Positions 5,731 through 56,265 of a DNA stretch of 64,000 bases are shown in pieces. Origin of the DNA: Minisyncoccota bacterium (lineage in GTDB: Bacteria > Patescibacteriota > Minisyncoccia > Phycocordibacterales > Phycocordibacteraceae). The notes beneath the pieces are model-generated. The model worked only from the letters and a program-made list of their open reading frames with translations, was not told where the DNA came from and did not search any database. A program made the translations under genes and the position numbers. How positions within the stretch are numbered: position 1 is the first letter of the stretch; the number at the start of each line of letters is the position of its first letter. The DNA is taken from the NCBI GenBank assembly GCA_035627655.1, contig DASPLI010000001.1:259355-323354 (forward strand). Reading direction: 5' to 3'.

Positions 5731-6120
5731 ATGCCCCTCACCATATTCCTTGCCCAAGTATTCGGTCTCTACATGATCATTGCTGGTATCGCTATCATTG
5801 CGAACCAGCGAAACATCATGCTTGCAGTTGCCGCTCTTGTTGAAGAGCGTTTCTCGCAGCTTCTTGTTGGCGTGCTCAGCCTCCTGCTCGGTCTCTTTCT
5901 CGTCAATTCGCATAACGATTGGTCCACGCTTCCAGCTGGCATCGTATCGCTCATCGGTTGGCTCTCGCTCGTAAAAGGTATCTTCTACCTCTTTACGCCT
6001 GAAAATTCCCTCACCAAGATCATCAGGAAGCTGAATCAGCGCAAGTGGTACATGATCGACGGAATCATCGCCATCCTCATCGGCGCGTATCTTGCCGGCT
6101 TTGGATACGGCTGGTTCTAA
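5731..6120 (+). CDS. Small polytopic membrane protein, hypothetical
   Basis: 129 aa hydrophobic ORF followed by strong terminator. Confidence 0.5.
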   Translation: MPLTIFLAQVFGLYMIIAGIAIIANQRNIMLAVAALVEERFSQLLVGVLSLLLGLFLVNSHNDWSTLPAGIVSLIGWLSLVKGIFYLFTPENSLTKIIRKLNQRKWYMIDGIIAILIGAYLAGFGYGWF

Positions 6121-6130
6121 CGTTCCATAC

Positions 6131-6165
6131 AAAAACAGCCCGCACGTGCGGGCTGTTTTTGTTTT
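6131..6165. terminator. Bidirectional intrinsic terminator (CAGCCCGCACGTGCGGGCTG + TTTTTGTTTT)
   Basis: Perfect 8-bp GC stem with T-run; also marks left edge of low-GC island. Confidence 0.8.
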
Positions 6166-6169
6166 CAGG

Positions 6170-6529
6170 TTATCGGTTTCGTAAGCTGGTCCAAGTAATT
6201 ACCACTATGCTGATGATGGAGAAGAGTCCGGCCATCAGCCACGTAACCATTTCTTTGGTAACCGAATAAAGCGGCATCCAGGTGTTGTTTGAATCAGGAG
6301 TAACTGCGATTAGAACAATTGAAAGTGGAAGCCACCACGCAGCAAGCTTTGCCCACGCCCCAAAGACCCCCTTCTTCTTTAGGAAAACTAGCAGAAGAGC
6401 AGGTATAAAAGTTGCTAAGCCAAGAATGTAGAGCGGTTCGCTTAACCAGGGATCATAAAGATCAAAATAATCAAAGATGTACCCAAGCGCACTTATTAAG
6501 ATTGTGGCGATTAGAATTTTTAATCTCAT
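6170..6529 (-). CDS. Membrane protein, hypothetical (within low-GC island)
   Basis: 119 aa, 3-4 TM helices, AT-rich codon usage. Confidence 0.45.
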   Translation of the reverse strand: MRLKILIATILISALGYIFDYFDLYDPWLSEPLYILGLATFIPALLLVFLKKKGVFGAWAKLAAWWLPLSIVLIAVTPDSNNTWMPLYSVTKEMVTWLMAGLFSIISIVVITWTSLRNR

Positions 6530-6534
6530 ATTTC

Positions 6535-9315: not shown

Positions 9316-9364
9316 ATGGCTCTAGTATATAGCCCTAAAGCAACTTTAGCGGTAGGCTCATTGC

Positions 9365-10078
9365 ATGGAAGTCTGGCAGATCGTCGGTGTTGTGATGGTC
9401 CTTACGTACATTGCGTATTGGGGCGGGAATCTCTTTTTCAAAGCACGTGCCGCTCGTGCGCTCATGAGCGACGAGCGTCCGTTTACAGACGACACGGGAA
9501 ATTACGAGAAGACACTTCTTGTCTTGGGAGACTCAACCGGCTCAGGCGTTGGCGCAGCAGCTCCGGAAGAATCGGTTGCCGGACGACTCGCTACCTATAT
9601 AGGAGCAACGCATGTCGAGAACTATGCGGAATCCGGAGCAGAGGTGCGCGACCTGCCAGAGCAAATCGCAAAAGCGAAGCTTCCTCGGTACGATCTTATT
9701 CTCGTTCACATCGGCGGCAACGACATTCTTTGGTTCCATAACGCCAAAGCAACCGCTCATCGGCTCAAAGAGGTACTCGGAACCCTTCCGGACGCTGGCC
9801 AGGTTCTCCTAGTAACTGCGGGCAATGTCGGGGGCGCAACCCTCTTCCCACCAACCTTCCGGTACCTCCATATGTGGACGACCCTCCAGTTCCATAAGGA
9901 ATTTACGAAGGCGGCAAGCGTAGTCGGCGCGACCTACGTAAACCTCTACGAGGCGCCAAATGTCGATCCGTTTATGGACGAGCCCGAGCGCTACCTTGCC
10001 GAAGATGGCCTCCATCCCTCCTCAGAAGGGTACCGGCTCTGGTTTGAGAAGGTGAAGGCCGCCCTTAGGGCCATTTAG
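9365..10078 (+). CDS. SGNH/GDSL-family hydrolase with N-terminal TM anchor
   Basis: GDS(T)G block LGDSTGSG, GGNDI, DGLHP (DxxH) blocks. Confidence 0.7.
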   Translation: MEVWQIVGVVMVLTYIAYWGGNLFFKARAARALMSDERPFTDDTGNYEKTLLVLGDSTGSGVGAAAPEESVAGRLATYIGATHVENYAESGAEVRDLPEQIAKAKLPRYDLILVHIGGNDILWFHNAKATAHRLKEVLGTLPDAGQVLLVTAGNVGGATLFPPTFRYLHMWTTLQFHKEFTKAASVVGATYVNLYEAPNVDPFMDEPERYLAEDGLHPSSEGYRLWFEKVKAALRAI

Positions 10079-26041: not shown

Positions 26042-26111
26042 ATACGTTCCATCATAGCCTACCTTGACTTTGTCTTGAAAATGTCGTAAACCGCGGACAG
26101 CACTTGCTTTT

Positions 26112-26130
26112 TCTGTCTACTTAGTGTACA
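26112..26130. promoter_or_regulatory. Palindromic candidate operator TAGTGT-N7-ACACTA in divergent promoter region upstream of PP2C gene
   Basis: Same half-sites and spacing as site upstream of pnuC (49709-49727). Confidence 0.45.
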
Positions 26131-26218
26131 AATGACACTAGGTAGCGAAATGGCGCTGCAGTTCCTTGAAAGGACCCATAACCCATTGCATCTAATCAAT
26201 TGAAAGGGGGTTGATCCC

Positions 26219-27052
26219 ATGGAGCTACTTCCGTTCTCGGTCGCCGGCGGTTCAGTCCCCGGTACCGAGCACACCAAGCCAGGGCAACCCGGCTGGACCA
26301 ACAACCAAGACGCATTCGCATGGTCGCAGGTACCAGGCGCACTTGCCGCTGTCGTTTGTGACGGCTGCGGAGGCGCGCCAAAGAGCGAAGTTGGGTCGCA
26401 GCTCGCTGCACCCTTCATCGCCTTGCGGCTCGCAGAACTGTGTCGAAGCATGAGCGTCGATGAGGCGCTCCTACTCGTCAATCTTCAGTTGAAGAATTTC
26501 TTGAGTGCGACCGCCAACCACTTGGCGCACAGCGTTCATGATGTTCCCAACATCGCAGGTGACTACTTCCTGTTCACGGTGCTCGGCGTCGTCATGACGC
26601 CCGAGCGTACCGTGATCTTTGAAGCGGGGGATGGCGTCTACGCCGTAAATGGCGAAGTCGTATGCATCCCGCCTTATCCCGATAACGCGCCGCCCTACTT
26701 GGGGCATCGTCTGACGGGGTGGTATCCGCAAGAGAAGATCGGTATTCGCATCCGTGCGGATCTGCCGACAGCGAAGGTCAACACCATTCTTATCGGCACC
26801 GACGGAGTCGCAGACGCGATAGCCGTCGCCGATGAGTTACTTCCCGGCAAACGACAGGGAGAGGTTTTCGGACCGATCCAACAATTTGTCGAGAACGATC
26901 TCTTCGTTCGTAATCCAGACGCAATTCGTCGGCGCCTCGCGCTTGCGAATCGCGAGCTGGTAGACGGAGAACATATCAAGAAAGGTCTGCTGCCAGACGA
27001 CACGACTCTCGTTGTCGTGCAGCGGCGGATCGAAGGAGGCAGCAATGCCTGA
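26219..27052 (+). CDS. PP2C-family (PPM) Ser/Thr protein phosphatase
   Basis: GxxHxxNQD, VCDGCGG, GTDGV, DDTTLVVV blocks; RBS AAGGGGG. Confidence 0.75.
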   Translation: MELLPFSVAGGSVPGTEHTKPGQPGWTNNQDAFAWSQVPGALAAVVCDGCGGAPKSEVGSQLAAPFIALRLAELCRSMSVDEALLLVNLQLKNFLSATANHLAHSVHDVPNIAGDYFLFTVLGVVMTPERTVIFEAGDGVYAVNGEVVCIPPYPDNAPPYLGHRLTGWYPQEKIGIRIRADLPTAKVNTILIGTDGVADAIAVADELLPGKRQGEVFGPIQQFVENDLFVRNPDAIRRRLALANRELVDGEHIKKGLLPDDTTLVVVQRRIEGGSNA

Positions 27053-28910
27053 CTATGTCATCAACGGCAGAACGCTTACGCTTCGGCCAAAAGACGCAGT
27101 CGGGAAGGGAGGAGAAGCGGACGTCTTCATCGAAGGCGGACGCGCGATCAAGATCTACAAGTCGCCGCGTCACCCGGACTTTACGGGCGACCCTGAAGCG
27201 CAAGCTGCGGCGCGCGATCGGATCGAAGAGCATCAGCGAAAACTCCCCGCATTCCCGCGCGGGCTTCCGGGGCGAGTCATCGTCCCGTCGGAGCTCGTGT
27301 ACGACACACACGGTCGCATTGCCGGCTACAGCATGAAGCCCCTCTTGGGTGCTGAAGTACTGTATCGGTACGGCGAACGTTCCTTCCGCGATGCCGGCGT
27401 CAAAGACGAAACGGCGGTCGCGGTTCTTGCCGACCTTCGCGGCACGGTAGAAGCCGTGCATAACGCGAATGTCGTCATCGGCGATTTCAACGACCTCAAC
27501 GTACTCGTCCTCGGACGAAACGCGCATCTGATTGACGCAGACAGCATGCAGTTCGGATCGTTCTATACGCGCGTGTTCACGACGAAATTCGTGGACCCGC
27601 TCATCTGCGATCCGAGAGCGAAGGCGCTCATCATGCGGGAGCCGCACAACAAAGCTTCCGACTGGTACGCCTACGCTGTCATGCTGATGCAGACACTACT
27701 GTTCGTAGGACCCTATGGCGGCGTGTATGCGCCGCAGGATCCTACCAAGCGGATTCCGCACGATCTGCGGCCGCTTCGGCGGGTGACGGTGTTTGACGGA
27801 GACGTCAGATATCCGAAACCTGCACGCCACTACCGCATCCTTCCGGATGACCTTCTCGAGTACTTCAAAAAAACCTTCGAGAAGGACGAACGCGTCGTGC
27901 CGCCTGCGCGCCTCGTCGAGAGCCTCCGGTTCACGACGTGTGCAAAGTGTGGCACCAATCATGCGCGGGCTCACTGCCCGTCCTGCGTGCACGTTACGGC
28001 GCCCATGCAGAAGGAAGTCCATAAAGGAGGCATCTCTGCCTTCAAGGAATTCTCGACTGACGGCGTCATACTGCATGCAGTGCTTGATCGCGATACGTTG
28101 CGGTTCGTTTATCACGACACGCAGATGTATCGGCGGGAGGATGGTTCTGAGCTCGCTTCTGGCGCGCTTGATCCACACTTCCGTTACCGCATTAGCGGCA
28201 CCAAAACGATCATGGGTCGCGGCGAACACGCCATCGTCTTTGACGGTGGGCGTCGCGATCAACTTGCAGTTGAGTCCTACGGACTCTTGCCCCTCTTCGA
28301 CGCCAACGCGAAGAACGTGTTCTTCGTGCGCGACGGAGGGTTGTGGCGTATCGGCACGCTCGGGATCTCGTATCCTGAGCGCTACGGAGACGTGCTTTCC
28401 GGCCAGACGCTGTTCTGGGTCGGAGAGCAACTTGGTTTCGGTTTGTATCGGGCGGGGGAGCTCTCACGCTTCTTCGTCTTCGATGCGAATCGAGCGGGTA
28501 TCAACGATTCGGTCAAACTTCCGCCGCTACGGGGGAAGATCGTCGATGCGACTTGTTCCTTCGGCGATGATCGGATCTGGTTCCTTGTCTCGACCGCTTA
28601 CGGCGGGAAGACGACGAACTACTGCTACGTCCTCGACGGACGAGGCGCACTCCTTGGACAGGCCGAAGCAGAAGCCGGAGACGGCAGCTGGCTCTCGACT
28701 CTCCGAGGCAAGTGCGCAACGAAAGGATTTCTCCTTGCGGCGACGGACGAGGGCGTAACGCGGATTGAATCCGCTAACGGTCTTGTTCAAGTCGCGAAGG
28801 AGTTTCCTGCGACTGCTGAGTTTGTCGACGCCGAAACGCGGTTGCTCCTTGGTTCCCAAGGGCTCTATGCGATTCGGCGCGGCGAAATCTGGAAACTAGT
28901 CCTCAAATAG
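27045..28910 (+). CDS. Protein-kinase-like (PKL/APH-type fold) protein with central CxxC...CxxC zinc ribbon and C-terminal beta-rich domain
   Basis: VGKGGEADVF...AIKIYK (Gly loop + Lys), HNANVVIGDFNDLNVLV and IDADS catalytic-like blocks; ATG overlaps PP2C stop (ATGCCTGA) after GAAGGAGG. Confidence 0.6.
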   Translation: MPDYVINGRTLTLRPKDAVGKGGEADVFIEGGRAIKIYKSPRHPDFTGDPEAQAAARDRIEEHQRKLPAFPRGLPGRVIVPSELVYDTHGRIAGYSMKPLLGAEVLYRYGERSFRDAGVKDETAVAVLADLRGTVEAVHNANVVIGDFNDLNVLVLGRNAHLIDADSMQFGSFYTRVFTTKFVDPLICDPRAKALIMREPHNKASDWYAYAVMLMQTLLFVGPYGGVYAPQDPTKRIPHDLRPLRRVTVFDGDVRYPKPARHYRILPDDLLEYFKKTFEKDERVVPPARLVESLRFTTCAKCGTNHARAHCPSCVHVTAPMQKEVHKGGISAFKEFSTDGVILHAVLDRDTLRFVYHDTQMYRREDGSELASGALDPHFRYRISGTKTIMGRGEHAIVFDGGRRDQLAVESYGLLPLFDANAKNVFFVRDGGLWRIGTLGISYPERYGDVLSGQTLFWVGEQLGFGLYRAGELSRFFVFDANRAGINDSVKLPPLRGKIVDATCSFGDDRIWFLVSTAYGGKTTNYCYVLDGRGALLGQAEAEAGDGSWLSTLRGKCATKGFLLAATDEGVTRIESANGLVQVAKEFPATAEFVDAETRLLLGSQGLYAIRRGEIWKLVLK

Positions 28911-28939
28911 GTTGAGGACCATCACAACGGAGACGTAAC

Positions 28940-30028
28940 ATGGCTCAATCTGTAGCCAGACAACTTCCCACCCCGCCGCTCTTCAATCCGAAGAACGCGG
29001 GCAACTGGGGCTATCGCCCCGACCAGCGTGCAATCTTCGAAACCGCCGCTGCCTGGAAAGGCCAACACGGTCTCAAGGCAGCGCGGCTCGATGGACAAAA
29101 AGTCATGCTGCTGCTGATCGACGTGCAGAAGGACTTCTGCCATCCGGAAGGCGCCCTCTACGTGGGCGGCCGGTCGGGTCGCGGTGCGATCGACGACTCG
29201 GCGCGCATTGCCGAGTTCATCTATCGCAATCTGAACGTCGTCTCCGACATCGCGACGACCTTGGATACGCACTTCGCGTACCAGATCTTCTCGCCGTCAT
29301 TCGTCGTCGACGAGAGCGGACAGCCGCTCAAGCCGTTCGACGTCGTGCTTGAAAACTGCGACATCATGCGCGCGGGCGTGTGCGTCGGGAAGGCTTCGGT
29401 CAGCCCGGCCGCCGCCGCGGTCGTCGCCAACGGCGACTACGCGACGCTGCAAAAGCAGTTCGAGTATTACTGCAAGACGCTTGGCCAAGGCGGCAAATAC
29501 AACCTCATCATGTGGCCCGAGCACTGCTTGCTCGGGTCCGAGGGCCACACCCTGGTCGGCGTCATTCACGAAGCGCGTCTCTTCCACGCGTACGCCCGCG
29601 CCTCGCAGTCGCACTGCGAGATCAAGGGCGGCAGCCCGTACACCGAGAACTACTCGGTGCTACAGCCGGAAGTGATGACCACGTTCGACGGCAAAGCCCT
29701 CCCGGGCGTGCAGAAGAACGCGCGATTCATCAAAATGCTGCTCAACTACGACCGCGTTATCGTCGCGGGCCAGGCGGGCAGTCACTGCGTGAAGAGTTCG
29801 ATCGACGACTTCCTCGCGGAAATCGTCGTGCAGGACCCGGCGCTTGCGCGCAAGGTCTACGTGCTCGAAGACTGCATGTCCGCAGTCACCGTGCCTGACG
29901 GCAAGGGCGGTTTCATCGCCGACTACACGCCGGACATGGACGCCGCGCTCGCCAAATTCGGCAACGCCGGCATGCATGTCGTGAAGTCCACAACGCCAGT
30001 CTCCGACTGGCCGGGCTTCCTGCAGTAA
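28940..30028 (+). CDS. pncA: Nicotinamidase (isochorismatase-fold), long form
   Basis: LLLIDVQKDFC, DTH metal site, IVAGQAGSHCVKSS catalytic Cys block closely parallel to E. coli PncA motifs. Confidence 0.7.
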   Translation: MAQSVARQLPTPPLFNPKNAGNWGYRPDQRAIFETAAAWKGQHGLKAARLDGQKVMLLLIDVQKDFCHPEGALYVGGRSGRGAIDDSARIAEFIYRNLNVVSDIATTLDTHFAYQIFSPSFVVDESGQPLKPFDVVLENCDIMRAGVCVGKASVSPAAAAVVANGDYATLQKQFEYYCKTLGQGGKYNLIMWPEHCLLGSEGHTLVGVIHEARLFHAYARASQSHCEIKGGSPYTENYSVLQPEVMTTFDGKALPGVQKNARFIKMLLNYDRVIVAGQAGSHCVKSSIDDFLAEIVVQDPALARKVYVLEDCMSAVTVPDGKGGFIADYTPDMDAALAKFGNAGMHVVKSTTPVSDWPGFLQ

Positions 30029-30102
30029 CGGTCATCCGGGCGTGTGCGGCGAGAGTAATCTCGCCGCATGGGCCCATCACATCAACCAGGGAAGGACATC
30101 CC

Positions 30103-30888
30103 ATGAACTCAACTGACGTTGGCGCTCTATTTAGCGCCGCAGGTAAAGACGGAACGCTCTCCAAAGGAGCGCTCTCGGTGCTCGACGCCGAAGACATCGG
30201 CGCCGTGATCAACCAAGGACTCGGCATCACACCCGACGACATCACTGCAAGCGAGGTCAACAACGTGTTCATGCTGCTCGACGACTCCAGTTCGATCGAG
30301 CATGCGGGCAACACGCAGCATGTTCGCGACGGGCACAACCTGATCGTGGACTCGCTACTGAAGACCAAGCAGGCGGATGCCATCATCATGTGCGGTCGCG
30401 CCCTCAATCGCGGGCAGATCTACCCGTGCGTTCGCCTCCCGGATGTGCCGCGTCTTGACGCGAGCAACTACAATCCGTCGGGCGGCACGCCGTTGTATGA
30501 CGAATCGACGATCATTCTCGGCATGGCGGCCGCCAAGCATCAGCAGTTTGCTGACAATGGCGTGCCGTGCCGGACGATCGTGCCGATCATCACCGACGGC
30601 GCCGACGTGGGCTCCCGCAAGCAGCGGCCAGACCACGTGCGGACCATCGTGCAAGATCTTCTGCGCACCGAGCAGTTCATCGTGATCGGCGTCGGCATCG
30701 ACGACGGCGTGACGAACTTCCGGTCGGTGTTCCAAAGCATGGGCATCGACGACCGCTGGATCCTGACCCCAGGCAATTCGCCAAGCGAAATTCGCAAGGC
30801 GTTTGCGATGGTGTCCCAGTCGGTATCGCGTGCGAGCCAGAACGCGCAAGCGTTCAGCACGGCTGCAATGGGCGGGTTTGCGGGGTAA
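30103..30888 (+). CDS. von Willebrand factor A (vWA) domain protein, TerY-like
   Basis: MIDAS DxSxS (LLDDSSSI), GGTPL, ITDGAD. Confidence 0.75.
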   Translation: MNSTDVGALFSAAGKDGTLSKGALSVLDAEDIGAVINQGLGITPDDITASEVNNVFMLLDDSSSIEHAGNTQHVRDGHNLIVDSLLKTKQADAIIMCGRALNRGQIYPCVRLPDVPRLDASNYNPSGGTPLYDESTIILGMAAAKHQQFADNGVPCRTIVPIITDGADVGSRKQRPDHVRTIVQDLLRTEQFIVIGVGIDDGVTNFRSVFQSMGIDDRWILTPGNSPSEIRKAFAMVSQSVSRASQNAQAFSTAAMGGFAG

Positions 30889-30921
30889 GATCCGCAGACC
30901 TCGGGTCCTGTTCTTTACAGG

Positions 30922-30946
30922 AAGCAGGAGGAGCATGATGCTCCTC
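30922..30946. repeat. Near-perfect 25-bp palindrome CAGGAGGAGCAT-G-ATGCTCCTCCTG
   Basis: 12-bp inverted arms around single central base. Confidence 0.6.
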
Positions 30947-30960
30947 CTGCAATCCTCGCT

Positions 30961-31024
30961 GAGATTCCTTCGGGAATCTCCTTTATAGGAGGCTTGAATC
31001 CTTCGAGCCTCCTTCAAGGAGAGA
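30961..31024 (+). promoter_or_regulatory. Structured leader element copy A (outer TCTCCTT/AAGGAGA helix enclosing GGAGGCT...AGCCTCC hairpin; 3' arm overlaps ARH RBS)
   Basis: Paralogous to 32039-32088 with compensatory stem substitutions. Confidence 0.5.
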
Positions 31025-31029
31025 GTTCT

Positions 31030-31992
31030 TTGCAACAACAGATCTCGCTCATCGAACGCTATCGCGGCGCGATGATTGGCGTACATGTCGGAGATGCGCT
31101 TGGGGCACCATACGAAACGTGGCCCGAAGAACGTATTCTCGCGGACATGCAGGCGCGCGACGGGCTCGTGCTCTTCGACTACGAAGACCCGTGGGGTAAG
31201 GACGGCCTCTTTCCGGCCGGATGCCCGACGGACGACTCGGAGTTGACCGCCGTACTCGCCGAACATCTTATTGAGAACCCAGAAGATCTTGAAGATCTCT
31301 ACGCACGCTTTCGCAGCTGCGTGGTGGATCGCAAGAGCCGCTTGTGCGCGCTTCCAGCATATGGATTTGGCGGCACAACGCGACGGGCGCTCAAGGAGCC
31401 GACGTATCGGGAAGCAGTTCAGCAGCCTAATACGCGGCCGCCGATTCCAAGCAACGGAGCGTTGATGCGGGCAGTGCCGATACCGCTTCGGTTCTTCGGT
31501 AGTCCGCGACAGGTCTCCGACTGCGCGTACGTTACATCGCTTATGACGCACCGGCATCCGCAAGCCATCGACGCATCCGTCGTCTATGCGCATCTGCTCT
31601 ATGGCGTTCTCGAACACGGGAACTACGAGCAGGCGGTCGCACGACTCGTCGGCATGTTGCCCGGTCTCACTGTCGACCAGGCGATTATCGACATCTTCCA
31701 TTCGCCGGCTCAAAAACCGGTGTTTGAAGGAAAGTTCGGCGGCGGCGCGCTCCATACACTTTGTGTGGTGCATTGGGCCGTCTCGACATCCACTTCCTTT
31801 GAAGAGGGGATGACGAAAGCAATCACGATCGGTAGTGATACCGATACGTACGGCGCGGTCGCTGGCGGTCTCCTCGGCGCCACCTACGGTGTACGAGGGA
31901 TCCCAGCCAAGTGGAAACATGGATTGCTTGGCGGCGTTCGTATGTGGCAGCTTGCTGAGAAGCTGCATGCGCTCGCCAATCCAGCGTCGTAA
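31030..31992 (+). CDS. ADP-ribosylglycohydrolase family protein (DraG/ARH-like)
   Basis: IERYRGAMIGVHVGDALGAPYE N-terminal signature, DDSELT, GSDTDTYGAVAGGLLGATYG C-terminal signature; likely TTG start at 31030 after AAGGAGAG (ORF-track start 30994 also TTG). Confidence 0.75.
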   Translation: MQQQISLIERYRGAMIGVHVGDALGAPYETWPEERILADMQARDGLVLFDYEDPWGKDGLFPAGCPTDDSELTAVLAEHLIENPEDLEDLYARFRSCVVDRKSRLCALPAYGFGGTTRRALKEPTYREAVQQPNTRPPIPSNGALMRAVPIPLRFFGSPRQVSDCAYVTSLMTHRHPQAIDASVVYAHLLYGVLEHGNYEQAVARLVGMLPGLTVDQAIIDIFHSPAQKPVFEGKFGGGALHTLCVVHWAVSTSTSFEEGMTKAITIGSDTDTYGAVAGGLLGATYGVRGIPAKWKHGLLGGVRMWQLAEKLHALANPAS

Positions 31993-31996
31993 TGCG

Positions 31997-32024
31997 TGGT
32001 GTGCGGGCCTTCGGGCCTGCACAC
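31997..32024 (+). other. GC hairpin with UUCG loop (GTGTGCGGGCC-TTCG-GGCCTGCACAC) after ARH gene
   Basis: 10/11-bp stem, no T-run. Confidence 0.4.
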
Positions 32025-32038
32025 TCCGCTTGTTCTAG

Positions 32039-32088
32039 CGAGATCTCCTTTATGGAGCGTTTGAGTTTCTCGAACGCTCCTCAAGGAA
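32039..32088 (+). promoter_or_regulatory. Structured leader element copy B upstream of nadE
   Basis: GAGATCTCCTTTATGGAGCGTTTGA...TCGAACGCTCCTCAAGGAAA; stem GGAGCGTT/AACGCTCC. Confidence 0.5.
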
Positions 32089-32142
32089 ATTGTGATCTTT
32101 GAGAACTATCGAACTCACCACTTCTAACAGAAGGAGGACTAC

Positions 32143-34014
32143 ATGCTTGGTTCACCGGTCCGGATCGTCGTCGCGCAAGTGGGGGCGGTTCCGGGTGATG
32201 TTGCGACCAACTTCGCAAACATATTCGACACGATTGCGACTGCGCGACGCGCGGCCGCCGATATCGTGGTGTTGCCGGAGCTTGCAACCACGGCATATGT
32301 GCTCGGCGATCGCTGGGAATACGACGCGTTCATTCGCGAAACCCAAGAAATCAACGAGCGGATCCGCGAAGCCTCCCGAGGACTCACTGTCATCTGGGGC
32401 TCGATCAAAGCGGATTTCGGCAAGATGGGCGAAGACGGTCGCGTGCGAAAATACAACGCCGCCTTCATCGCATCTCACGGCCGCTGGATCTCAAACGGCA
32501 CGCTGGACGGGTTCGTTCCCAAGACGAATCTGCCTAAGTACCGCATCTTCGACGATGCGCGCCACTTCTACCCGGCGGGGAAACTCGCCGCGGAAATGCA
32601 GACGCGTCTTGAAACGCTGCTCGCACCCTTCCCGCTGGTCATCAAAGGCAAGCGCTACAACATTGCGCTCTCTGTCTGCGAAGACCTCTGGCAGGACGAG
32701 TACAACGAGAAACCGGCGCAGATCTACAGTGCGCACGACTCCGATCTCATCATCGACATCTCGTGCTCGCCGTGGACGTACGGCAAGTGGCATGCGCGCG
32801 AAAATATGCTGAAGCGCCGCGTGAAGGACACGGGCATCCCGATCCTCTACGTGAACGCGATCGGCCTCGAAAACAACACCAAGAACTTGATTTGGTTCGA
32901 TGGCGACTCAGCGCTCATCGACGCCGAAGGACGGTTCCGGTGGCGCGGCCAACAGCACAAAGAGCAGATCCACATCCTCGATCTCGATGATCTCGACGGC
33001 CCACTCCCTGAGCGGACCTATACGGGTATCAAAGAGATTCACGACGCGACAGTCGCGGCAATGAAAGCCTTCTACGCTCCGTTCGCACGGGTCGTCGTCG
33101 GGCTTTCAGGCGGCATCGATTCGGCGCTCGCGCTCGCGCTTCTCACCGAAGCGCTCGGCGCCAAGCGACTGCTTGCGGTCAACATGCCGACCGAGTTCAA
33201 CTCGGAAACTACCCGAGGACTCGCAGCGCTCTGCGCTCGGAACCTCGGTGTCGAGTACGTCATCTCTCCGATCCAAGAAGCGTACGAGGAAGAACTTCGT
33301 GCGCTTCAAAAGCTCGGCATGACGCCGTCCGCACTCGATCGGGAAAACATCCAGGCAGTCTTGCGCGGCACGCGTCTCAACGCGATCGCCAAAGCGCAAG
33401 GCAGTATGCATGGCGGCGCCGGCGCATTCACCTGCAACGGCAACAAGACCGAGATGGCCCTCAACTACTTCACCCTCTATGGGGACGGAGCGGGCGCTGC
33501 GGCCTTTCTAGCCGATCTCTGGAAGGGTCAGATCTACGAGCTTGCACGCTACATCAACGAGCGTGCGGGCCGCGAGCTGATCCCGCAAGGGATTCTCGAC
33601 ATCGTGCCGTCGGCGGAACTCTCGAAGGATCAAGCGGTCGATGAGGGGAAGGGAGATCCTATCTTCTTCCCGTATCACGACCAGCTCCTGCGGGCGTTCA
33701 CCGAACTGCGCTGGGATCCGACCACGGTGCTCGAGCACTTGTGCGAAAGCAACGAGGCGCTCGAGCAGAAGCTCGGCTGTGCTCCCGGCACCGTCGCTCG
33801 GTACTTCAACTCGCGCCGCACGCTCGTCGATAACCTCGAATGGGCGTGGCGCCAGTACAACACCGAGTTCAAGCGCGGACAGACGCCGCCGGTCTTCCTC
33901 ACGTCGCGCCGAGCCTTCGGGTTCGACCGACGCGATACGATCGCCGCGGGATACCTGACGAAGCGCTACCAAGAACTCAAGCAAGCGTACTTGGCCGGCG
34001 AACTCGTCGCGTGA
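32143..34014 (+). CDS. nadE: Glutamine-dependent NAD+ synthetase (N-terminal CN-hydrolase/nitrilase domain + C-terminal NAD synthetase domain)
   Basis: 623 aa; nitrilase-type N-domain; GLSGGIDSAL PP-loop in C-domain; RBS AGGAGG. Confidence 0.88.
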   Translation: MLGSPVRIVVAQVGAVPGDVATNFANIFDTIATARRAAADIVVLPELATTAYVLGDRWEYDAFIRETQEINERIREASRGLTVIWGSIKADFGKMGEDGRVRKYNAAFIASHGRWISNGTLDGFVPKTNLPKYRIFDDARHFYPAGKLAAEMQTRLETLLAPFPLVIKGKRYNIALSVCEDLWQDEYNEKPAQIYSAHDSDLIIDISCSPWTYGKWHARENMLKRRVKDTGIPILYVNAIGLENNTKNLIWFDGDSALIDAEGRFRWRGQQHKEQIHILDLDDLDGPLPERTYTGIKEIHDATVAAMKAFYAPFARVVVGLSGGIDSALALALLTEALGAKRLLAVNMPTEFNSETTRGLAALCARNLGVEYVISPIQEAYEEELRALQKLGMTPSALDRENIQAVLRGTRLNAIAKAQGSMHGGAGAFTCNGNKTEMALNYFTLYGDGAGAAAFLADLWKGQIYELARYINERAGRELIPQGILDIVPSAELSKDQAVDEGKGDPIFFPYHDQLLRAFTELRWDPTTVLEHLCESNEALEQKLGCAPGTVARYFNSRRTLVDNLEWAWRQYNTEFKRGQTPPVFLTSRRAFGFDRRDTIAAGYLTKRYQELKQAYLAGELVA

Positions 34015-34159
34015 CGTTCGATGTGCAGGAGGGTTTCGGCCCTCCTGCATACCGTCCTTTCCTCGGGAAAGGACTTCGTATGGGGCGCCTAAGCAGATGC
34101 TTGGACGCCGCAACGGAGTTACAGATCTTTTTCACCTATAGACAACAGAAAGGAAACCA

Positions 34160-35527
34160 ATGACTGACTTCGTGGGGCGCGTACTGCGTCCTGAAAAAGA
34201 CGATTGGGTAATCCGGTCGCTTCTCGACGTGGACTTTTACAAGTTCACGATGGGGCTCTTTATCTTCCTGCTGCATCGCGGCGTGGAGGTGGAGTTCTGC
34301 CTGATCAACCGAAACCTAAAGCTTCCCCTCGCCGATATCGTCGACGAGGAGGAGCTTCGGCGACAGCTCGATCACGTGCGTACGCTGTGCCTCTCGCGCA
34401 CGGACGTCGTGTACTTGCGTGGCCAGGATGTGTACGGGCACAACATGTTCCCGGAAAACTATCTGGCGTTCTTGCGGCAGCTCGCGCTGCCCGAGTACAC
34501 GCTTCGGCGCGTCGGCAATCAGTATGAGCTGAAGTTCAAGGGTTCGTGGGAAACGGTGACGTTTTGGGAAACCATCGCGCTCGCCATCATTTCGGAACTC
34601 TTCTACCGCGCGCTCATGCAGTCGATGCCTGAGCACGAATTGCGCGTGCTATTTGGCCGCGCGATTGATCGCCTCTATCGGAAGCTCGAGAAGCTCAAGA
34701 CGCGTCCCTGGATTCGGTTCGCCGATTTCGGGCAGCGTCGCCGCTTCAGCTTCCTCTGGCAGCGGTTCGTTGATCAGACGTGTCGCGAGGTCGTGCCGCA
34801 GCAATTTGTGGGGACCAGTAACACCTGGATGGCCTTCAATCAGGACTTGGTGCCCATCGGTACCAATGCGCACGAGCTTCCCATGGTCCTCACCGCGCTT
34901 GCGGAGGGGGACGAAGCGAAGCGGTACGCGCAGTATCAGGTGCTCAGGGAGTGGGGAGGCATGTTCCCGCAAAACGCCCTGCGCATCATGCTGCCGGATA
35001 CCTACGGCTCCGAGCAGTTCTTCCAGAACATGCCGGCCGATCTTGCCGAAGAAGTTGCCGAAACCTGGCGCGGCCAGCGTCAGGATTCGGGCGATCCGAT
35101 CACGGAATGCCGCCGCTACACATCGTGGCTGCGCGGTTATATCCAGCCGGCACGCATTCGTTCAGAGCGCCTCAACATCTTTTCCGACGGCCTCGACATC
35201 GATCCCATCTTTGAGTTCGATGACCAGGTCAGAGACGAGATCCTCATCTCAAACGGGTGGGGTACGACGCTCACGAACGACTTCATCGATTGCCATCCGC
35301 GACCAGACGACCGTGCGGTCGTGCGCGGCAAAACGCTCGAGCTGACGAACCGTCAGTTGTGGCGTGGGCACTCGATCGTCTGCAAAGTCGAGTACGCCAA
35401 CGGGCGTCCGGCGGTAAAACTTTCAAACAACATTAACAAGGCGACCGGTCCTTCCAAGGAAGCGATCGCCGAGTACGTGCGCATCTTTGGCAACGAAGGT
35501 CGCGCAGCGCAGGATGTTGTCGTCTAA
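34160..35527 (+). CDS. pncB: Nicotinate phosphoribosyltransferase
   Basis: SLLDVDFYKFTMG, FGQRRRFS, GTSNTW, QDSGDP blocks align with E. coli PncB. Confidence 0.88.
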   Translation: MTDFVGRVLRPEKDDWVIRSLLDVDFYKFTMGLFIFLLHRGVEVEFCLINRNLKLPLADIVDEEELRRQLDHVRTLCLSRTDVVYLRGQDVYGHNMFPENYLAFLRQLALPEYTLRRVGNQYELKFKGSWETVTFWETIALAIISELFYRALMQSMPEHELRVLFGRAIDRLYRKLEKLKTRPWIRFADFGQRRRFSFLWQRFVDQTCREVVPQQFVGTSNTWMAFNQDLVPIGTNAHELPMVLTALAEGDEAKRYAQYQVLREWGGMFPQNALRIMLPDTYGSEQFFQNMPADLAEEVAETWRGQRQDSGDPITECRRYTSWLRGYIQPARIRSERLNIFSDGLDIDPIFEFDDQVRDEILISNGWGTTLTNDFIDCHPRPDDRAVVRGKTLELTNRQLWRGHSIVCKVEYANGRPAVKLSNNINKATGPSKEAIAEYVRIFGNEGRAAQDVVV

Positions 35528-35574
35528 AAATACTTGAACCCCCTACGCGAACATGTTCGCGTAGGGGGTTCTTT

Positions 35575-36475: not shown

Positions 36476-36491
36476 TTCTTGCTAGAAAGAA
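36476..36491. promoter_or_regulatory. 16-bp palindrome TTCTTGCTAGAAAGAA abutting nadM Shine-Dalgarno
   Basis: 7/8 matched inverted half-sites. Confidence 0.35.
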
Positions 36492-36495
36492 CGGA

Positions 36496-36562: not shown

Positions 36563-37249
36563 TTACAGCACCTCGATTTCCTTCACGTCCTTGGATGCAA
36601 ACGTATAGAGCTGGGCAGGGCGGGAACGGCCCCCGCGACGCTTTTTCGGGAGTTCCTTCAGGATCCCGAGCTTGAGGATTTTCTTGCGGAAGTTTCGCTT
36701 GTCGAGATCGCGCTCCAAAATGCATTCATAGGTGCGCTCAAGCTCGGTGAGCGTGAATTCCTCAGGCATCAGCTGTGCGATGAGGGTGGTGTACGTGATG
36801 CGCGAGCGCAGGCGCGCCCGGGCCGCTGCAAGCACTTCGTTGTGATCGTAGGCGAGGGTTGTCTTTTCGTGTGCCGGGCTCCACCAGGAATCGTCTGTGT
36901 CTTTGCGCTCCTCCTCCGTCAGGGCATCCCAGGGGACGCAGGCGATATAAGCGACCGCAACCGCCCGGCTGCGGGGGTCTCGATTCACTGCGCTGAAGGT
37001 CGCCAGCTGCTCCATATAGATGTGGGAGGAGGAAATGCCGGTACGACCCTTCAGGTGGCGAATAGCGGCCTCTTCAGCCGTTTCTGTGGCATCCAGGAGA
37101 CCTCCGGGAAGGCCGGGGACCCCCGGGAAGTGGGGTGGGCGGTTCACCCGGATGAGGCGGACCAAGAGGGTCGCCTCCCGAATCGTAAAGAGCGCGATGT
37201 CCGCAGCAAGGACCGCAAACCGCAACGGCTCCGGATTTTGAGGGGTCAT
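36563..37249 (-). CDS. nrtR: Nudix-related transcriptional regulator (NrtR-like: degenerate Nudix domain + C-terminal winged-helix)
   Basis: Degenerate Nudix box GLPGGLLDATETAEEAAIRHLKGRTGI (catalytic Glu positions altered), basic helix-rich C-terminus; gene context with NAD salvage genes. Confidence 0.55.
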   Translation of the reverse strand: MTPQNPEPLRFAVLAADIALFTIREATLLVRLIRVNRPPHFPGVPGLPGGLLDATETAEEAAIRHLKGRTGISSSHIYMEQLATFSAVNRDPRSRAVAVAYIACVPWDALTEEERKDTDDSWWSPAHEKTTLAYDHNEVLAAARARLRSRITYTTLIAQLMPEEFTLTELERTYECILERDLDKRNFRKKILKLGILKELPKKRRGGRSRPAQLYTFASKDVKEIEVL

Positions 37250-49689: not shown

Positions 49690-49727
49690 CAGCCTCTTCC
49701 CTATCAGTTAGTGTAGATTATACACTA
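49686..49727 (+). promoter_or_regulatory. pnuC promoter (TTGACA-N17-TAGTGT) overlapped by 21-bp palindrome TTAGTGTAgATtATACACTAA
   Basis: TAGTGT-N7-ACACTA at 49709-49727 overlapping -10. Confidence 0.55.
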
Positions 49728-49740
49728 ACAAATAAGGCTT

Positions 49741-50436
49741 ATGACTATCCGCGCACTTCTGGGAACCAAGCACGATGTCCTCGAGCAGACCTATGTTGCC
49801 CTTGCCATGCTCGTGGTGACGTTTCTCTACGAGGGCATCACCGCTTACGCCATTCCTGGCTTTACGTTCAACATCTATGAAGCAGTCGGTACCTGGACAG
49901 GTCTCGTCTGTGTCTGGCTTTCACGGACGCGTAACATCCTGTGCTGGCCGTGGGGGATTGTGAGTGCGCTCTCGCTCGGGTTCTTCTTCTCCCAGATTGG
50001 TCTTCCTGGGCAGCAGTGGCTCAACTGGGTCTACTTCATGATCATTCAGCTGTGGGCATGGCCGCACTGGGCCTTTGGCGGAGCGGATAAGACCGAACTT
50101 CCGGTAACAGAGCTCTCCTGGAAAGGGAAGGTGCTGACAGTTCTCGCGATCCTCGCTGGTACCGCACTCGTCTACTACGCGATCGGCTACTTTGCGCCAG
50201 GTTCCTTCCATCCGCTGCTCGACGCTCTGGTCGTCGCCTCAAGCGTGGTTGCGCAGTACCTGCTTGGTAAGAAGAAGGTGGAGAGTTGGATTCTCTGGCT
50301 GGGACCGGTGAACCTGGTTTCGATCGTGCTCTTTGCGATGGCAGGCGCGTATACAGTTGCCGCCCTCTACCTCGCATTCTTTATCCATGCGATCTTCGCG
50401 CTTGGTGCGTGGACGAAGGCGAAGAGCCATGTATAA
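49741..50436 (+). CDS. pnuC: Nicotinamide riboside transporter PnuC
   Basis: Blocks YEAVGTWTGLVCVWLS, QIGL...WLNW, VESWILWLGPVNLVSIVLFAMAGAY align with E. coli PnuC. Confidence 0.85.
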   Translation: MTIRALLGTKHDVLEQTYVALAMLVVTFLYEGITAYAIPGFTFNIYEAVGTWTGLVCVWLSRTRNILCWPWGIVSALSLGFFFSQIGLPGQQWLNWVYFMIIQLWAWPHWAFGGADKTELPVTELSWKGKVLTVLAILAGTALVYYAIGYFAPGSFHPLLDALVVASSVVAQYLLGKKKVESWILWLGPVNLVSIVLFAMAGAYTVAALYLAFFIHAIFALGAWTKAKSHV

Positions 50437-53136: not shown

Positions 53137-53258
53137 AGCTATGGTTAGTGAATAAACCTAGGATCGGTTCTACAGAATGGTGCATGAATCGGACATGAAG
53201 CATCTTTCATCATCTATGGTATTGTGCCCTCGGCTTGTTATTTGAAAGGAGCCAACCA

Positions 53259-54341
53259 ATGCCAACGGACGTAACGACTATCGTCCTGACCGGCGGCCCT
53301 TGTGGCGGGAAAACAACAGCGCTTGCACACCTTGAATGGGAACTACCGCGCCATGGCGTCCGGGTCATTACTGTCCCGGAGGCGGCACGGATGCTGATGT
53401 CTTCCGGCCTCATTCCGGCGCAGGTCGGATGGGGTGCATTTCAGGAAGCCATACTTCGTACCCAGCTTGCGCATGAGGATACGTTTCGCTCGCTTGCGTC
53501 TCGGTACGAGAGCGGGCCGACCGTCATGCTCTGCGACCGCGGAGCCATAGACAACCGGGCGTATGTTTCCGAAGAAGTGTTCCAGAATCTCTTGGACCAC
53601 GTCGGCGTGAAGCTTACGGAAGTGCGCGACAATCGCTACGACGCCGTGCTGCATCTGCTGACGGCGGCAAGTGGTGCGGAAGCGCACTATGTGCAGGACA
53701 ATGAGCGACTCGAGTCGCTCGAGGATGCGCGCCGTCTTGATCAGGCGACGCAGCATGCATGGGTCGGCCATCCGCACTTGCGGGTGATCGACAACTCAAC
53801 CGACTTTGAAGGCAAGAAGCAGCGCGTCCTTGATGAAGTGTTGCGCATTCTCGGGCTGCCCGTGCCGCTTGAGATCGAGCGTAAGTACATCATTGAACGC
53901 TGGGTCTTAAAGAAGCTTCCAGCGCATGCGCAGATGGTTGAAGTCGAGCAGTACTATCTCGACGGCAGCGGAGATGCGTATCAAGAGCGCATTCGCAGAC
54001 GCACGCAGCATGGCTGCTCCGTCTTCTATCGCACGTACAAAGTAAAAGTTGGTACCGGGGTCAATGAGGAGCGCGAATGGCGTATCACGGAAGAGGAGTT
54101 CAACCTTGAACGAGATACGCGCGCACTCACGCGGGTGTGCAAGAATCGCTGGTGCTTCCTCTATGAGCATCAGTACTTCGAGCTCGACGACTTCTCGCCG
54201 ATGGGACGCGATCTGTGCCTCATGGAGCTTGAACTAACCCACGAGCAGCAGACGCCCGTGTTTCCCGACTGGATGGGGAAGGTGATTGATGTCACCGATA
54301 ACCCGAGCTACGGGAATTACGCGCTCGCGTTTCCGGTCTAA
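53259..54341 (+). CDS. P-loop NTPase (NadR-kinase-like AAA_28-type) fused to C-terminal CYTH (triphosphate tunnel metalloenzyme) domain
   Basis: Walker A TIVLTGGPCGGKTTALAHL; CYTH signature EIERKYII at domain start; ATG 53259 after AAGGAG. Confidence 0.55.
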   Translation: MPTDVTTIVLTGGPCGGKTTALAHLEWELPRHGVRVITVPEAARMLMSSGLIPAQVGWGAFQEAILRTQLAHEDTFRSLASRYESGPTVMLCDRGAIDNRAYVSEEVFQNLLDHVGVKLTEVRDNRYDAVLHLLTAASGAEAHYVQDNERLESLEDARRLDQATQHAWVGHPHLRVIDNSTDFEGKKQRVLDEVLRILGLPVPLEIERKYIIERWVLKKLPAHAQMVEVEQYYLDGSGDAYQERIRRRTQHGCSVFYRTYKVKVGTGVNEEREWRITEEEFNLERDTRALTRVCKNRWCFLYEHQYFELDDFSPMGRDLCLMELELTHEQQTPVFPDWMGKVIDVTDNPSYGNYALAFPV

Positions 54342-55806: not shown

Positions 55807-55814
55807 TATATATA

Positions 55815-56172
55815 GGTGGAGGTGGGGAGAATTGAACTCCCGTCCGAATCCGTCTTTGAGAGCGAGTCTACGACGCGTAGTCCTGATTAGGTGCTAGGGC
55901 AGGGTGCGAGGAATCGGGACGAAACCACTCCTGCCTGATCCCGATTATCTAGGCATTCCGTTCGGGAAGACGGATGCCGATCTCGTAGAAGATTCCGCCC
56001 ATATCAACCGCTACGAGAACCGGAAGATATGAACGTCGCGAAGGCGAAAACCCGGAGGTTACGCGTAGGCGAACGCAAAGTCCTTCATACCGAAGTACGG
56101 GGACTTAACGCTTGCAAAGGTATTCTTGGCAAGTTTGGGTGTGTACGTTGGTAAAGCGGTCAGCACACCTCC
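55815..56172 (-). ncRNA. ssrA: tmRNA (SsrA)
   Basis: tRNA-like 3' end on minus strand ...GGACGGGAGUUCAAUUCUCCCCACCUCCACC (T-arm + acceptor, cf. E. coli ...GGACGCGGGUUCAACUCCCGCCAGCUCCACCA); 5' GGAGGUG pairs 7/7 with 3' CACCUCC; adjacent to smpB; candidate tag ORF ...(M)KDFAFAYA-UAA. Confidence 0.7.
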
Positions 56173-56265
56173 GCTGCGTCGCACGTCTCTCAAAGAACAG
56201 ACCGTCAAAGCCGGTCACCCCCAGGAAGAAGACGATACACCGATCATCTGCTTACGGCGAGCTTC

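Follow-up and report, generated by a model that had tools for sequence, protein, structure and literature searches.

What is the role of a structured RNA element that recurs between the genes of a single operon for NAD metabolism? This question is raised by a 64-kb stretch of contig DASPLI010000001.1 from a Minisyncoccota bacterium (hereafter the window, or W in comparisons, whose coordinates are used unless stated otherwise), in which a hairpin element stands upstream of the genes encoding ARH, glutamine-dependent NadE and PncB. An earlier note on this DNA had described two copies of ~50 nucleotides (nt), upstream of ARH and nadE, and had considered a cis-regulatory RNA, an RNA thermometer or a small repeat family. 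Both copies lie where that note placed them, and a third one precedes pncB. We report that the element is a conserved sense-strand RNA structure followed by a near-invariant single-stranded tail. We favor the view, to which we give a probability of roughly 55%, that hairpin and tail form nut-like sites of the type known from rrn operons, with a boxB-like hairpin and a boxA that would recruit NusB and S10 within an NAD operon.

The spacers that carry the element, located before ARH (intergenic region 1, IGR1), nadE (IGR2) and pncB (IGR3), are 141-150 nt long and share a common layout: a stop codon, a first hairpin (H1), the element, a GNTCTTT tail, and a Shine-Dalgarno (SD) sequence and start codon that generally lie 25-45 nt past the tail. 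A second hairpin (H2) abuts the element in the ARH and pncB spacers. The consensus structure consists of an outer helix of 4-7 bp (P1), an internal loop with UAU on its 5' side, and an inner helix (P2) of typically 12 bp, with arms ranging from 10 to 14 bp and a variable loop of 2-7 nt. The outer helix proposed in the earlier note is present in copies 1 and 2, referred to below as A and B (TCTCCTT/AAGGAGA and TCCTT/AAGGA, respectively). From ATCTCCTTTAT through TCAAGGA, both copies measure 45 nt and align without a gap. As had been noticed, their stem differences preserve pairing: 6 of the 12 P2 pairs are changed on both sides, and a U.G wobble occupies the identical stem position in each. The 11-mer ATCTCCTTTAT has exact matches at copies A and B only in the 64 kb, a composite pattern found no match in 100 shuffles, and the IGRs fold with z-scores of -4.3 to -6.4 relative to shuffled sequences. 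On these three grounds, chance is excluded for copies A and B. The third copy is diverged and has orthologues in the related loci L003, L004 and L015; it had escaped the earlier note, as had H2 next to copy A, the GTTCTTTG tail and the fact that AAGGAGA serves as an SD in copy A only.

Nine related loci of Parcubacteria type carry the element in equivalent places, for a total of 25 instances. These loci have the same gene order and the same element-bearing spacers, their ARH proteins are 43-62% identical to that of the window, and the ARH homologues bear Parcubacteria or Paceibacterota names; the contig that contains the window is a metagenome assembly of 742 kb. The link to NAD genes drawn earlier holds for ARH, nadE and pncB, and extends to a nadD-like gene preceded by an additional copy in L016. 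The element is absent from the more distant L018 and L019, where the ARH context differs. A covariance model (R1) built from 22 copies retrieved 23 sites scoring 42-80 bits, all on the + strand and all in NAD-operon spacers of 9 loci. Nothing else exceeded 18.5 bits in the 171.7 kb searched on both strands (the 64-kb window plus the flanks of 10 loci), which speaks against a dispersed form of the small repeat family that had been suggested.

Covariation, one of the checks that the earlier note had called for, supports the proposed fold. In a model-guided alignment of 22 distinct sequences that include both orthologous and paralogous sites, standard pairs fill 94.3% of the cells compared to 79.3% in column shuffles (0 of 500 reached the observed value), and double-sided changes affect 15 of the 16 pairs. 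Sliding the partner strand by 1-3 columns lowers pairing to 27-53%. The eight orthologous ARH spacers alone recover H2, P1 and P2, with compensatory changes in six pairs, and the whole stem is replaced in L016 (GAGGAUUCGAUA / UAUCGAAUCCUC). The unpaired UAU is near-invariant (U15, 22/22; A16 and U17, 20/22 each), and a mid-stem position holds a U.G wobble in 13 of 22 copies and a C.A mismatch in 7. Furthermore, G.U cells (39) outnumber A.C and C.A cells (11), indicating that the folded species is the + strand RNA. The element is a conserved sense-strand RNA structure.

These data bear directly on a DNA-level explanation, according to which the repeat would be an operator for NrtR or another regulator, an internal promoter, or a mobile or recombination repeat. 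P2 is a near-perfect 12-bp inverted repeat of partly conserved sequence (GGAGCGCTTGAA / TTCGAGCGCTCC), and NrtR is encoded nearby. However, arm and loop lengths vary as described above, the arms covary away from the consensus (for example GAGGATTCGATA / TATCGAATCCTC in L016), and the opposite strand would show mismatches in place of the 39 G.U pairs. The NrtR operators with their GT-N7-AC core sit elsewhere (26122 and 49709), and the spacers contain no -35/-10 pair with workable spacing for an internal promoter. The copies occupy orthologous positions across genomes whose ARH proteins have diverged to 43-62% identity, and none lies outside the operon in the 171.7 kb; a pattern scan of metagenomes returned 31 stretches, close to the chance number estimated by hand, of which the single real one (L049) belongs to the same operon. 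We consider a DNA-level role extremely unlikely. An NrtR operator was rejected for its variable spacing and covarying arms, a repetitive extragenic palindromic (REP) or miniature inverted-repeat (MITE) element for the lack of copies outside the NAD operon in the window, in the flanks of the 10 loci and in the metagenome scan, and an integron attC site because the tail is not GTTRRRY and synteny is fixed.

The hairpin element is so far undescribed, and no database describes it. At the gathering score, no Rfam family matched the element in the window, L003, L004, L016 or L020, and a search of 30850-32200 at E<=10 produced only microRNA and Yfr1 noise. A contig search with the ARH protein returned distant proteobacterial fragments only, and a literature search found no paper on RNA motifs in NAD operons of the candidate phyla radiation. 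Several known motifs were also considered and discarded: a K-turn (no tandem G.A pairs), a CsrA site (GGA is missing in 5 copies), a hairpin-dependent pause (U71 lies anywhere between 9 and 17 nt from the hairpin) and a pyrimidine-motif triplex (the sequence does not fit). An outer helix P0 joining the 5' flank to the tail was likewise dropped, as the flank is unconserved and is pyrimidine-rich in L016_3 and L020.

In all copies, P1/P2 is followed after 2-9 nt by a near-invariant tail, G-N-U-C-U-U-U-(G/A). G65, C68 and U71 are present in 22 of 22 sequences and U67, U69 and U70 in 21; position 66 is a pyrimidine in 19 and position 72 is G or A in 18, which gives GYUCUUUR. The tail continues as GUUCUUUGAGAAC or GUUCUUUGCAAC, with GA(A/G)AAC, in many copies. 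It matches the GYUCUUU core of boxA, the NusB-NusE (S10) binding site, whose consensus GYTCTTTAANA was derived for gamma-proteobacteria (PMC5725501). In rrn operons, nut-like sites are found in the leader and in the spacer, in the order boxB-boxA (PMC8632103). The cyanobacterial 16S-23S spacer contains a boxA reading GAACCTTGAAAA (GAACCUUGAAAA) and a boxB helix. A Mycoplasma primer for the polymerase chain reaction reads GTTCTTTGAAAACTGAAT, and we take it to target the 16S-23S spacer; Gram-positive and mycobacterial rrn boxA presumably read UGUUCUUUGAAAAC and UGUUGUUUGAGAAC. An Rfam scan found no rRNA gene in the window or in L003, L004, L016 and L020. The match between the near-invariant tail and boxA points to recruitment of Nus factors rather than to ligand binding.

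A related module stands at the start of the operon. In nine of nine related loci that reach this point, the NrtR operator is followed by a small hairpin that covaries (GTGC/GCAC, AGCG/CGCT, GGCC/GGCC) and, 1-4 nt behind it, by the boxA-like word G[UA]UC[CU]UUGA[AG]A. Leader copies read GUUCCUUGAAAAC, GCUCUUUGAAAAC or GUUCUUUGAAAAU, for example GTTCCTTGAAAAC, and the window has a simpler copy with GUUCCUUGAAA. The motif is present even in L019, which is devoid of spacer elements. Further boxA-like words were read behind the 261-aa gene that precedes ARH, where GTTCTTT occupies the place equivalent to 30910 in L004, L016 and L017, and in the divergent leader of the nadM-Nudix gene (Table 1).

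Based on these motifs, we propose the following sequence of events. NrtR would set whether the ~9.4-kb operon is transcribed, thereby providing the step that responds to NAD or ADP-ribose. The leader nut-like site would then load NusB/S10, together with NusA and NusG, onto RNA polymerase. As each spacer boxA emerges, it would be bound by NusB-S10 (NusE), and a termination-resistant elongation complex would be formed or renewed. This complex would carry the polymerase through the untranslated, hairpin-rich spacers despite Rho-dependent polarity, allowing the distal NAD genes to be transcribed. Because no boxA is more than ~45 nt from the start codon that follows, translation of the next cistron may also be reduced by bound Nus factors, as at E. 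coli suhB; in the window, the boxA-like tail overlaps the ARH start codon itself. Antitermination or repression as the outcome is inferred from the sites, and both occur in known cases, the former at CRISPR arrays and the latter at the suhB boxA, where translational repression is followed by Rho termination (PMC5725501). Within the element, P1 would pair the purine strand (CAAGGAG) with CUCCUU and hold it off the pyrimidine-rich boxA, which would stay single-stranded. Constrained folding favored the P1 state by 0.5-6 kcal/mol in 22 of 23 instances, with the tail free of the adjacent purine strand, and the element therefore plausibly keeps boxA single-stranded.

Several observations weigh against this assignment. 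The boxA consensus is gamma-proteobacterial and cyanobacterial and may not be that of this lineage. Three copies have A at boxA position 2 (GAUCUUU), the spacer copies retain the 3' half of boxA (AANA) only loosely, and the identification relies on a core of 7-8 nt. A relaxed boxA 8-mer occurs about 30 times in the coding sequence of the window, so that what counts for the case is where the word lies and how well it is conserved, rather than the word itself. Moreover, rrn boxB is dispensable and poorly conserved, whereas the hairpin, its UAU loop and the mid-stem wobble or C.A mismatch are strongly conserved here. This suggests that the hairpin acts as a gate or has an additional partner, be it NusA, S4 or a factor specific to the operon. 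Finally, one nut site is normally enough for many kilobases, and the presence of four to six sites per operon needs explaining.

If the hairpin were a gate, P1/UAU-loop/P2 could sense an NAD-related metabolite or an operon-specific protein and thereby control the adjacent boxA: P1, by holding the purine strand, would free boxA for NusB/S10, and pairing of the purine strand with boxA would hide it. The result would be a riboswitch-like device that sets processive antitermination, or Nus-mediated repression, separately for each cistron within one operon. We regard this extension of the nut-site model as quite improbable. In a ligand-sensing riboswitch, P1/UAU-loop/P2 would bind an NAD-related metabolite and toggle with an alternative helix, CAAGGAG-UUCUUUG, to control the availability of the ribosome-binding site or of the tail of each NAD cistron. 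The invariant unpaired nucleotides and the covarying stems would suit such a device, the element is found strictly with NAD genes and is absent from the upstream non-NAD cistrons of the operon, and in the ARH-spacer type the helix between purine strand and tail is predicted to compete within 1.3-2.6 kcal/mol. The aptamer domain of the NAD+-I riboswitch is a similarly small stem-loop-stem with a narrow taxonomic range, which also counts for this explanation. However, the comparison with NAD+ riboswitch models recommended in the earlier note yielded neither NAD+-I, NAD+-II nor any other Rfam family, even at E<=10. The internal loop measures no more than ~3 x 2 nt, and boxA accounts for the best-conserved stretch of unpaired nucleotides. 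In the leader, this tail stands behind a small hairpin of quite another kind. Between the two states, SD accessibility does not change in a consistent way, and it would be unusual for one operon to contain three sensors. In addition, NrtR already senses NAD or ADP-ribose for the operon and for pnuC, a gene without the element. A riboswitch is thus quite unlikely in our view.

The evidence for NrtR comes from its gene, which lies next to the operon, and from its operators. NrtR sites are 21-bp palindromes that lie in front of NAD genes and share an invariable GT-N7-AC core (PMC2330246). The palindrome at the operon promoter, TAGTGTACAAATGACACTA, carries this core, sites that fit (TAGTGTA-N5-TACACTA) lie at 26122 and 49709, and the same arrangement of operator and promoter is seen in L003, L004, L007, L014, L016, L019 and L020. 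A perfect palindrome of this type, TAGTGTAGATTATACACTA, lies with a TTGACA promoter just upstream of the gene for PnuC, a nicotinamide-riboside transporter; the pnuC leader has neither the hairpin element nor boxA. The predicted NrtR regulon comprises pnuC and the NAD operon. Given operators at both places, NAD-responsive control is most simply transcriptional, and is probably exerted by NrtR. In L020, a more distant relative, NrtR-type operators are arranged in tandem (TTAGTGTATATCTGACACTAG and TTAGTGTATAGAAAACACTAA, 1080-1125) ahead of the operon leader.

The earlier note also proposed that folding would sequester the ribosome-binding site of ARH, as the AAGGAGA strand of P1 is its SD. This part stands for W, L003, L014 and L015, where the ARH spacer is short; of the 23 model-aligned instances, the 19 others have their true SD 25-45 nt downstream of P1. 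An RNA thermometer, or a simple hairpin sequestering the SD, does not account for the element, since the helix covers a functional SD in the short ARH spacer only. N-terminal comparison shows how the start of ARH has changed: in L004, L007, L016, L017 and L020, ARH starts at an ATG behind a separate SD, and the M-ISL... of L017 and L020 is the counterpart of MQQQ-ISL... in W (31030-31041). The arrangement in W, L003, L014 and L015 is a derived one, in which the ancestral ATG and its SD have been lost, the UUG in the boxA-like tail now acts as the start codon and the 3' strand of P1 as the SD. Constrained folding revealed no consistent shift in SD accessibility between the alternative P1 states. 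On this result, and given that the P1 state is favored in 22 of 23 instances, a four-segment switch between SD and anti-SD was rejected. An upstream open reading frame (ORF) starting at the tail UUG was rejected too, as its G is missing in 8 of 22 copies and its reading frame does not keep a constant relation to that of the main ORF. Three ATGA overlaps look like chance. A 237-aa ORF in another frame (32099-32812, +), which starts at the TTG of the copy 2 tail and overlaps nadE, is probably a spurious high-GC ORF.

The remaining hairpins of the spacers call for another explanation to be weighed, namely that each spacer is a processing and stability module that would make each NAD cistron independent in its stability and translation. 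H1 would protect the upstream 3' end, and either P1/P2 would be an RNase III-type site or the tail an RNase E/Y-type cleavage site. In all IGRs of all relatives, the stop codon is immediately followed by H1, a strong hairpin without a U tract whose presence is kept as its sequence varies. Eight orthologous copies of IGR1 retain H2, and in L016 its stem shows a compensatory change. The recurrence of paralogous structures from one spacer to the next recalls the R-sites of phage T7, and the tail is single-stranded and U-rich after its invariant G. Conversely, UAU and GNUCUUU are near-invariant although RNase III needs no conserved single strand; the helix, which P1 and P2 together bring to 16-19 bp around an internal loop of 3 x 2 nt, is below the usual two turns; and the leader copy lies at or near the predicted 5' end, with no upstream cistron to stabilize. 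We consider a processing role unlikely, although it is compatible with the Nus model and the two are not mutually exclusive. The post-stop hairpins have no U tracts, unlike the true terminators of this genome with their A and T tracts, which is consistent with read-through of one operon.

The region from 26.2 to 35.5 kb looks like a single operon of ~9.4 kb that begins at the predicted NrtR-controlled promoter and ends at a strong terminator after pncB (Table 1). In order, its + strand genes encode a PP2C-type phosphatase, proteins of 621-632, 362 and 261 aa, ARH, NadE and PncB, and the nadM-Nudix gene and nrtR lie on the opposite strand near the operon end.

Table 1. Positions of the predicted features of the NAD operon and of the pnuC locus in the window. 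Scores are those of covariance model R1 unless stated otherwise.
Feature	Position	Strand	Description
Predicted operon promoter	26104-26140	+	-35 TTGCTT (26104-26109), 17-nt spacer, -10 TACAAA (26127-26132)
NrtR operator	26122-26140	+	TAGTGTACAAATGACACTA; 19-bp palindrome overlapping the -10 of the operon promoter
Leader nut-like site	26142-26173	+	Hairpin GTAGCG-AAATGG-CGCTGC (26142-26159), then boxA-like GTTCCTTGAAAGG (26161-26173)
PP2C-type phosphatase gene	26219-27052	+	
Hairpin and boxA-like word after the 261-aa gene	30889-30917	+	Small hairpin GACC-TCG-GGTC after the stop codon, then GTTCTTTA (30910-30917)
H1 of IGR1	30924-30950	+	G+C-rich hairpin of 12-13 bp, no U tract
H2 of IGR1	30961-30980	+	GAGATTCC-TTCG-GGAATCTC; abuts P1
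Copy 1 (A), upstream of ARH	30977-31022	+	72.4 bits
Copy 1, P1	30977-30983 / 31016-31022	+	TCTCCTT / AAGGAGA; unpaired UAU 30984-30986
Copy 1, P2	30987-30998 / 31002-31013	+	AGGAGGCTTGAA / TTCGAGCCTCCT; loop of 3 nt
Copy 1, boxA-like tail	31025-31032	+	GTTCTTTG; last three bases (31030-31032) are the ARH TTG start
ARH gene	31030-31992	+	
H1 of IGR2	31998-32024	+	GTGTGCGGGCC-TTCG-GGCCTGCACAC; no U tract
Copy 2 (B), upstream of nadE	32046-32087	+	69.1 bits
Copy 2, P1	32046-32050 / 32083-32087	+	TCCTT / AAGGA; unpaired UAU 32051-32053
Copy 2, P2	32054-32065 / 32069-32080	+	GGAGCGTTTGAG / CTCGAACGCTCC
Copy 2, boxA-like tail	32094-32106	+	GATCTTTGAGAAC; 37 nt upstream of the nadE ATG (32143)
nadE	32143-34014	+	Glutamine-dependent NadE
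H1 and H2 of IGR3	34024-34074	+	H1 34024-34049; H2 GTCCTTTCC-TCG-GGAAAGGAC (34054-34074)
Copy 3, upstream of pncB	34075-34118	+	59.2 bits; diverged; 34075-34131 with tail
Copy 3, P1		+	TTCG(T) / (A)CGGA; unpaired UAU 34079-34081
Copy 3, P2	34082-34095 / 34098-34111	+	GGGGCGCCTAAGCA / TGCTTGGACGCCGC; conserved C.A and G.G mismatches
Copy 3, boxA-like tail	34124-34130	+	GATCTTT(TTCACC)
pncB	34160-35527	+	
Intrinsic terminator after pncB	35536-35571	.	Strong, bidirectional; 16-bp stem with A and T tracts; ends the operon
boxA-like word in divergent nadM-Nudix leader	36485-36492	-	GTTCTTTC, after the nrtR terminator hairpin; sequence read, single site, weaker
nrtR	36563-37249	-	ADP-ribose-responsive Nudix-type repressor; PF00293 + WHD_NrtR; NF050029, 144 bits
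NrtR-type palindrome	49709-49727		TAGTGTAGATTATACACTA; upstream of pnuC
pnuC	49741-50436		PnuC transporter

The four conserved genes at the head of the NrtR operon (26219-30888; 1554-5888 in L003) are of unclear role, and their order differs among relatives. They encode a PP2C_2 phosphatase, a protein of 580-630 aa with faint kinase or LanL-like matches, a nicotinamidase/isochorismatase-like protein and a protein of 250-260 aa without family; the 362-aa protein of the window has a weak nicotinamidase match. PADLOC gave no matches for these four genes or for ARH. The NAD cluster and two neighboring genes (~24.3-37.3 kb) lie between rplB (L2, 23302-24270) and rpsS (S19, ~37.36 kb), within an S10-type cluster that has EF-G, EF-Tu, L3 and L4 upstream and L22, S3 and SecY downstream. 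S19-L22-S3 also comes after nrtR in L003, which shows that this insertion into the ribosomal protein cluster is shared.

Elsewhere in the window, a 368-aa protein with an AAA_28 domain is encoded at 53235-54341, a few kilobases from pnuC, and in L018 an AAA_28 gene directly adjoins the gene for an NMN transporter. This proximity suggests a NadR-like ribosylnicotinamide kinase. A boxA-like word, GTTCTTTGAGAGA, is found at 56187-56198 (-), within the tmRNA gene (55814-56222) and ~25 nt in from its 5' end, and may be due to chance. The stretch from 6001 to 10000 has a GC content of 0.44-0.49, compared to ~0.57 elsewhere, contains a 926-aa LCAT/lipase-like ORF (6535-9315, -) and may have been horizontally acquired.

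To our knowledge, almost nothing has been learned about gene regulation in Patescibacteria, and we know of boxA/Nus control as long believed to be limited to rRNA operons and lambdoid phages, with suhB and CRISPR arrays as recent additions. If the nut-site reading is correct, Nus-dependent control extends to a metabolic protein-coding operon, where it would act at the leader and at every long spacer, and to Patescibacteria. Furthermore, the 25 instances and the working covariance model provide a comparative set that could serve as a test bed for a structured RNA gating a boxA.

Among known systems, serial paralogous looped hairpins within one polycistronic mRNA are found in the RNase III signals of phage T7 (R0.3, R1.1) and in the stabilizer hairpins of puf and malEFG (REP), which also resemble our spacers in their extra stable hairpins behind stop codons. 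Here, however, the helix is shorter, flank and loop nucleotides are near-invariant, and a related module stands at the 5' end of the primary transcript. The NAD+-I (nadA motif) and NAD+-II (pnuC motif) riboswitches are likewise small stem/internal-loop/stem RNAs of narrow taxonomy upstream of NAD genes, but neither Rfam model matches, their tandem-domain or pseudoknot architecture is lacking, and the conserved single strand is a boxA.

A further comparison is with the non-rRNA boxA sites of the E. coli and Salmonella suhB 5' untranslated region, of CRISPR leaders and of diverse genes (Baniulyte 2017; Stringer 2020). Known predicted sites lie less than 50 nt upstream, and in the present operon too, boxA is found within ~50 nt of a non-rRNA start codon in a 5' untranslated region. 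Those are single promoter-near sites without a conserved partner hairpin, whereas the sites described here are serial and intercistronic, are accompanied by a covarying hairpin, and occur beside NAD genes in Patescibacteria. The nut-like sites of rrn operons share the order of hairpin then boxA, the GYUCUUU core, and a placement in internal untranslated spacers as well as in the leader, close behind the promoter. They differ in that the sites here belong to the transcript of a protein-coding operon for NAD salvage whose repressor responds to a metabolite, that no boxC was identified and up to five or six sites occur per operon, and that the dispensable and variable boxB of rrn is replaced by a conserved two-helix module with its UAU loop and mid-stem wobble. 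The locus is best read as a new member of a familiar type of system, in a location uncommon for it and with a hairpin more elaborate than usual, in a Parcubacteria clade, and it would be of more interest still if this hairpin proves to gate boxA.

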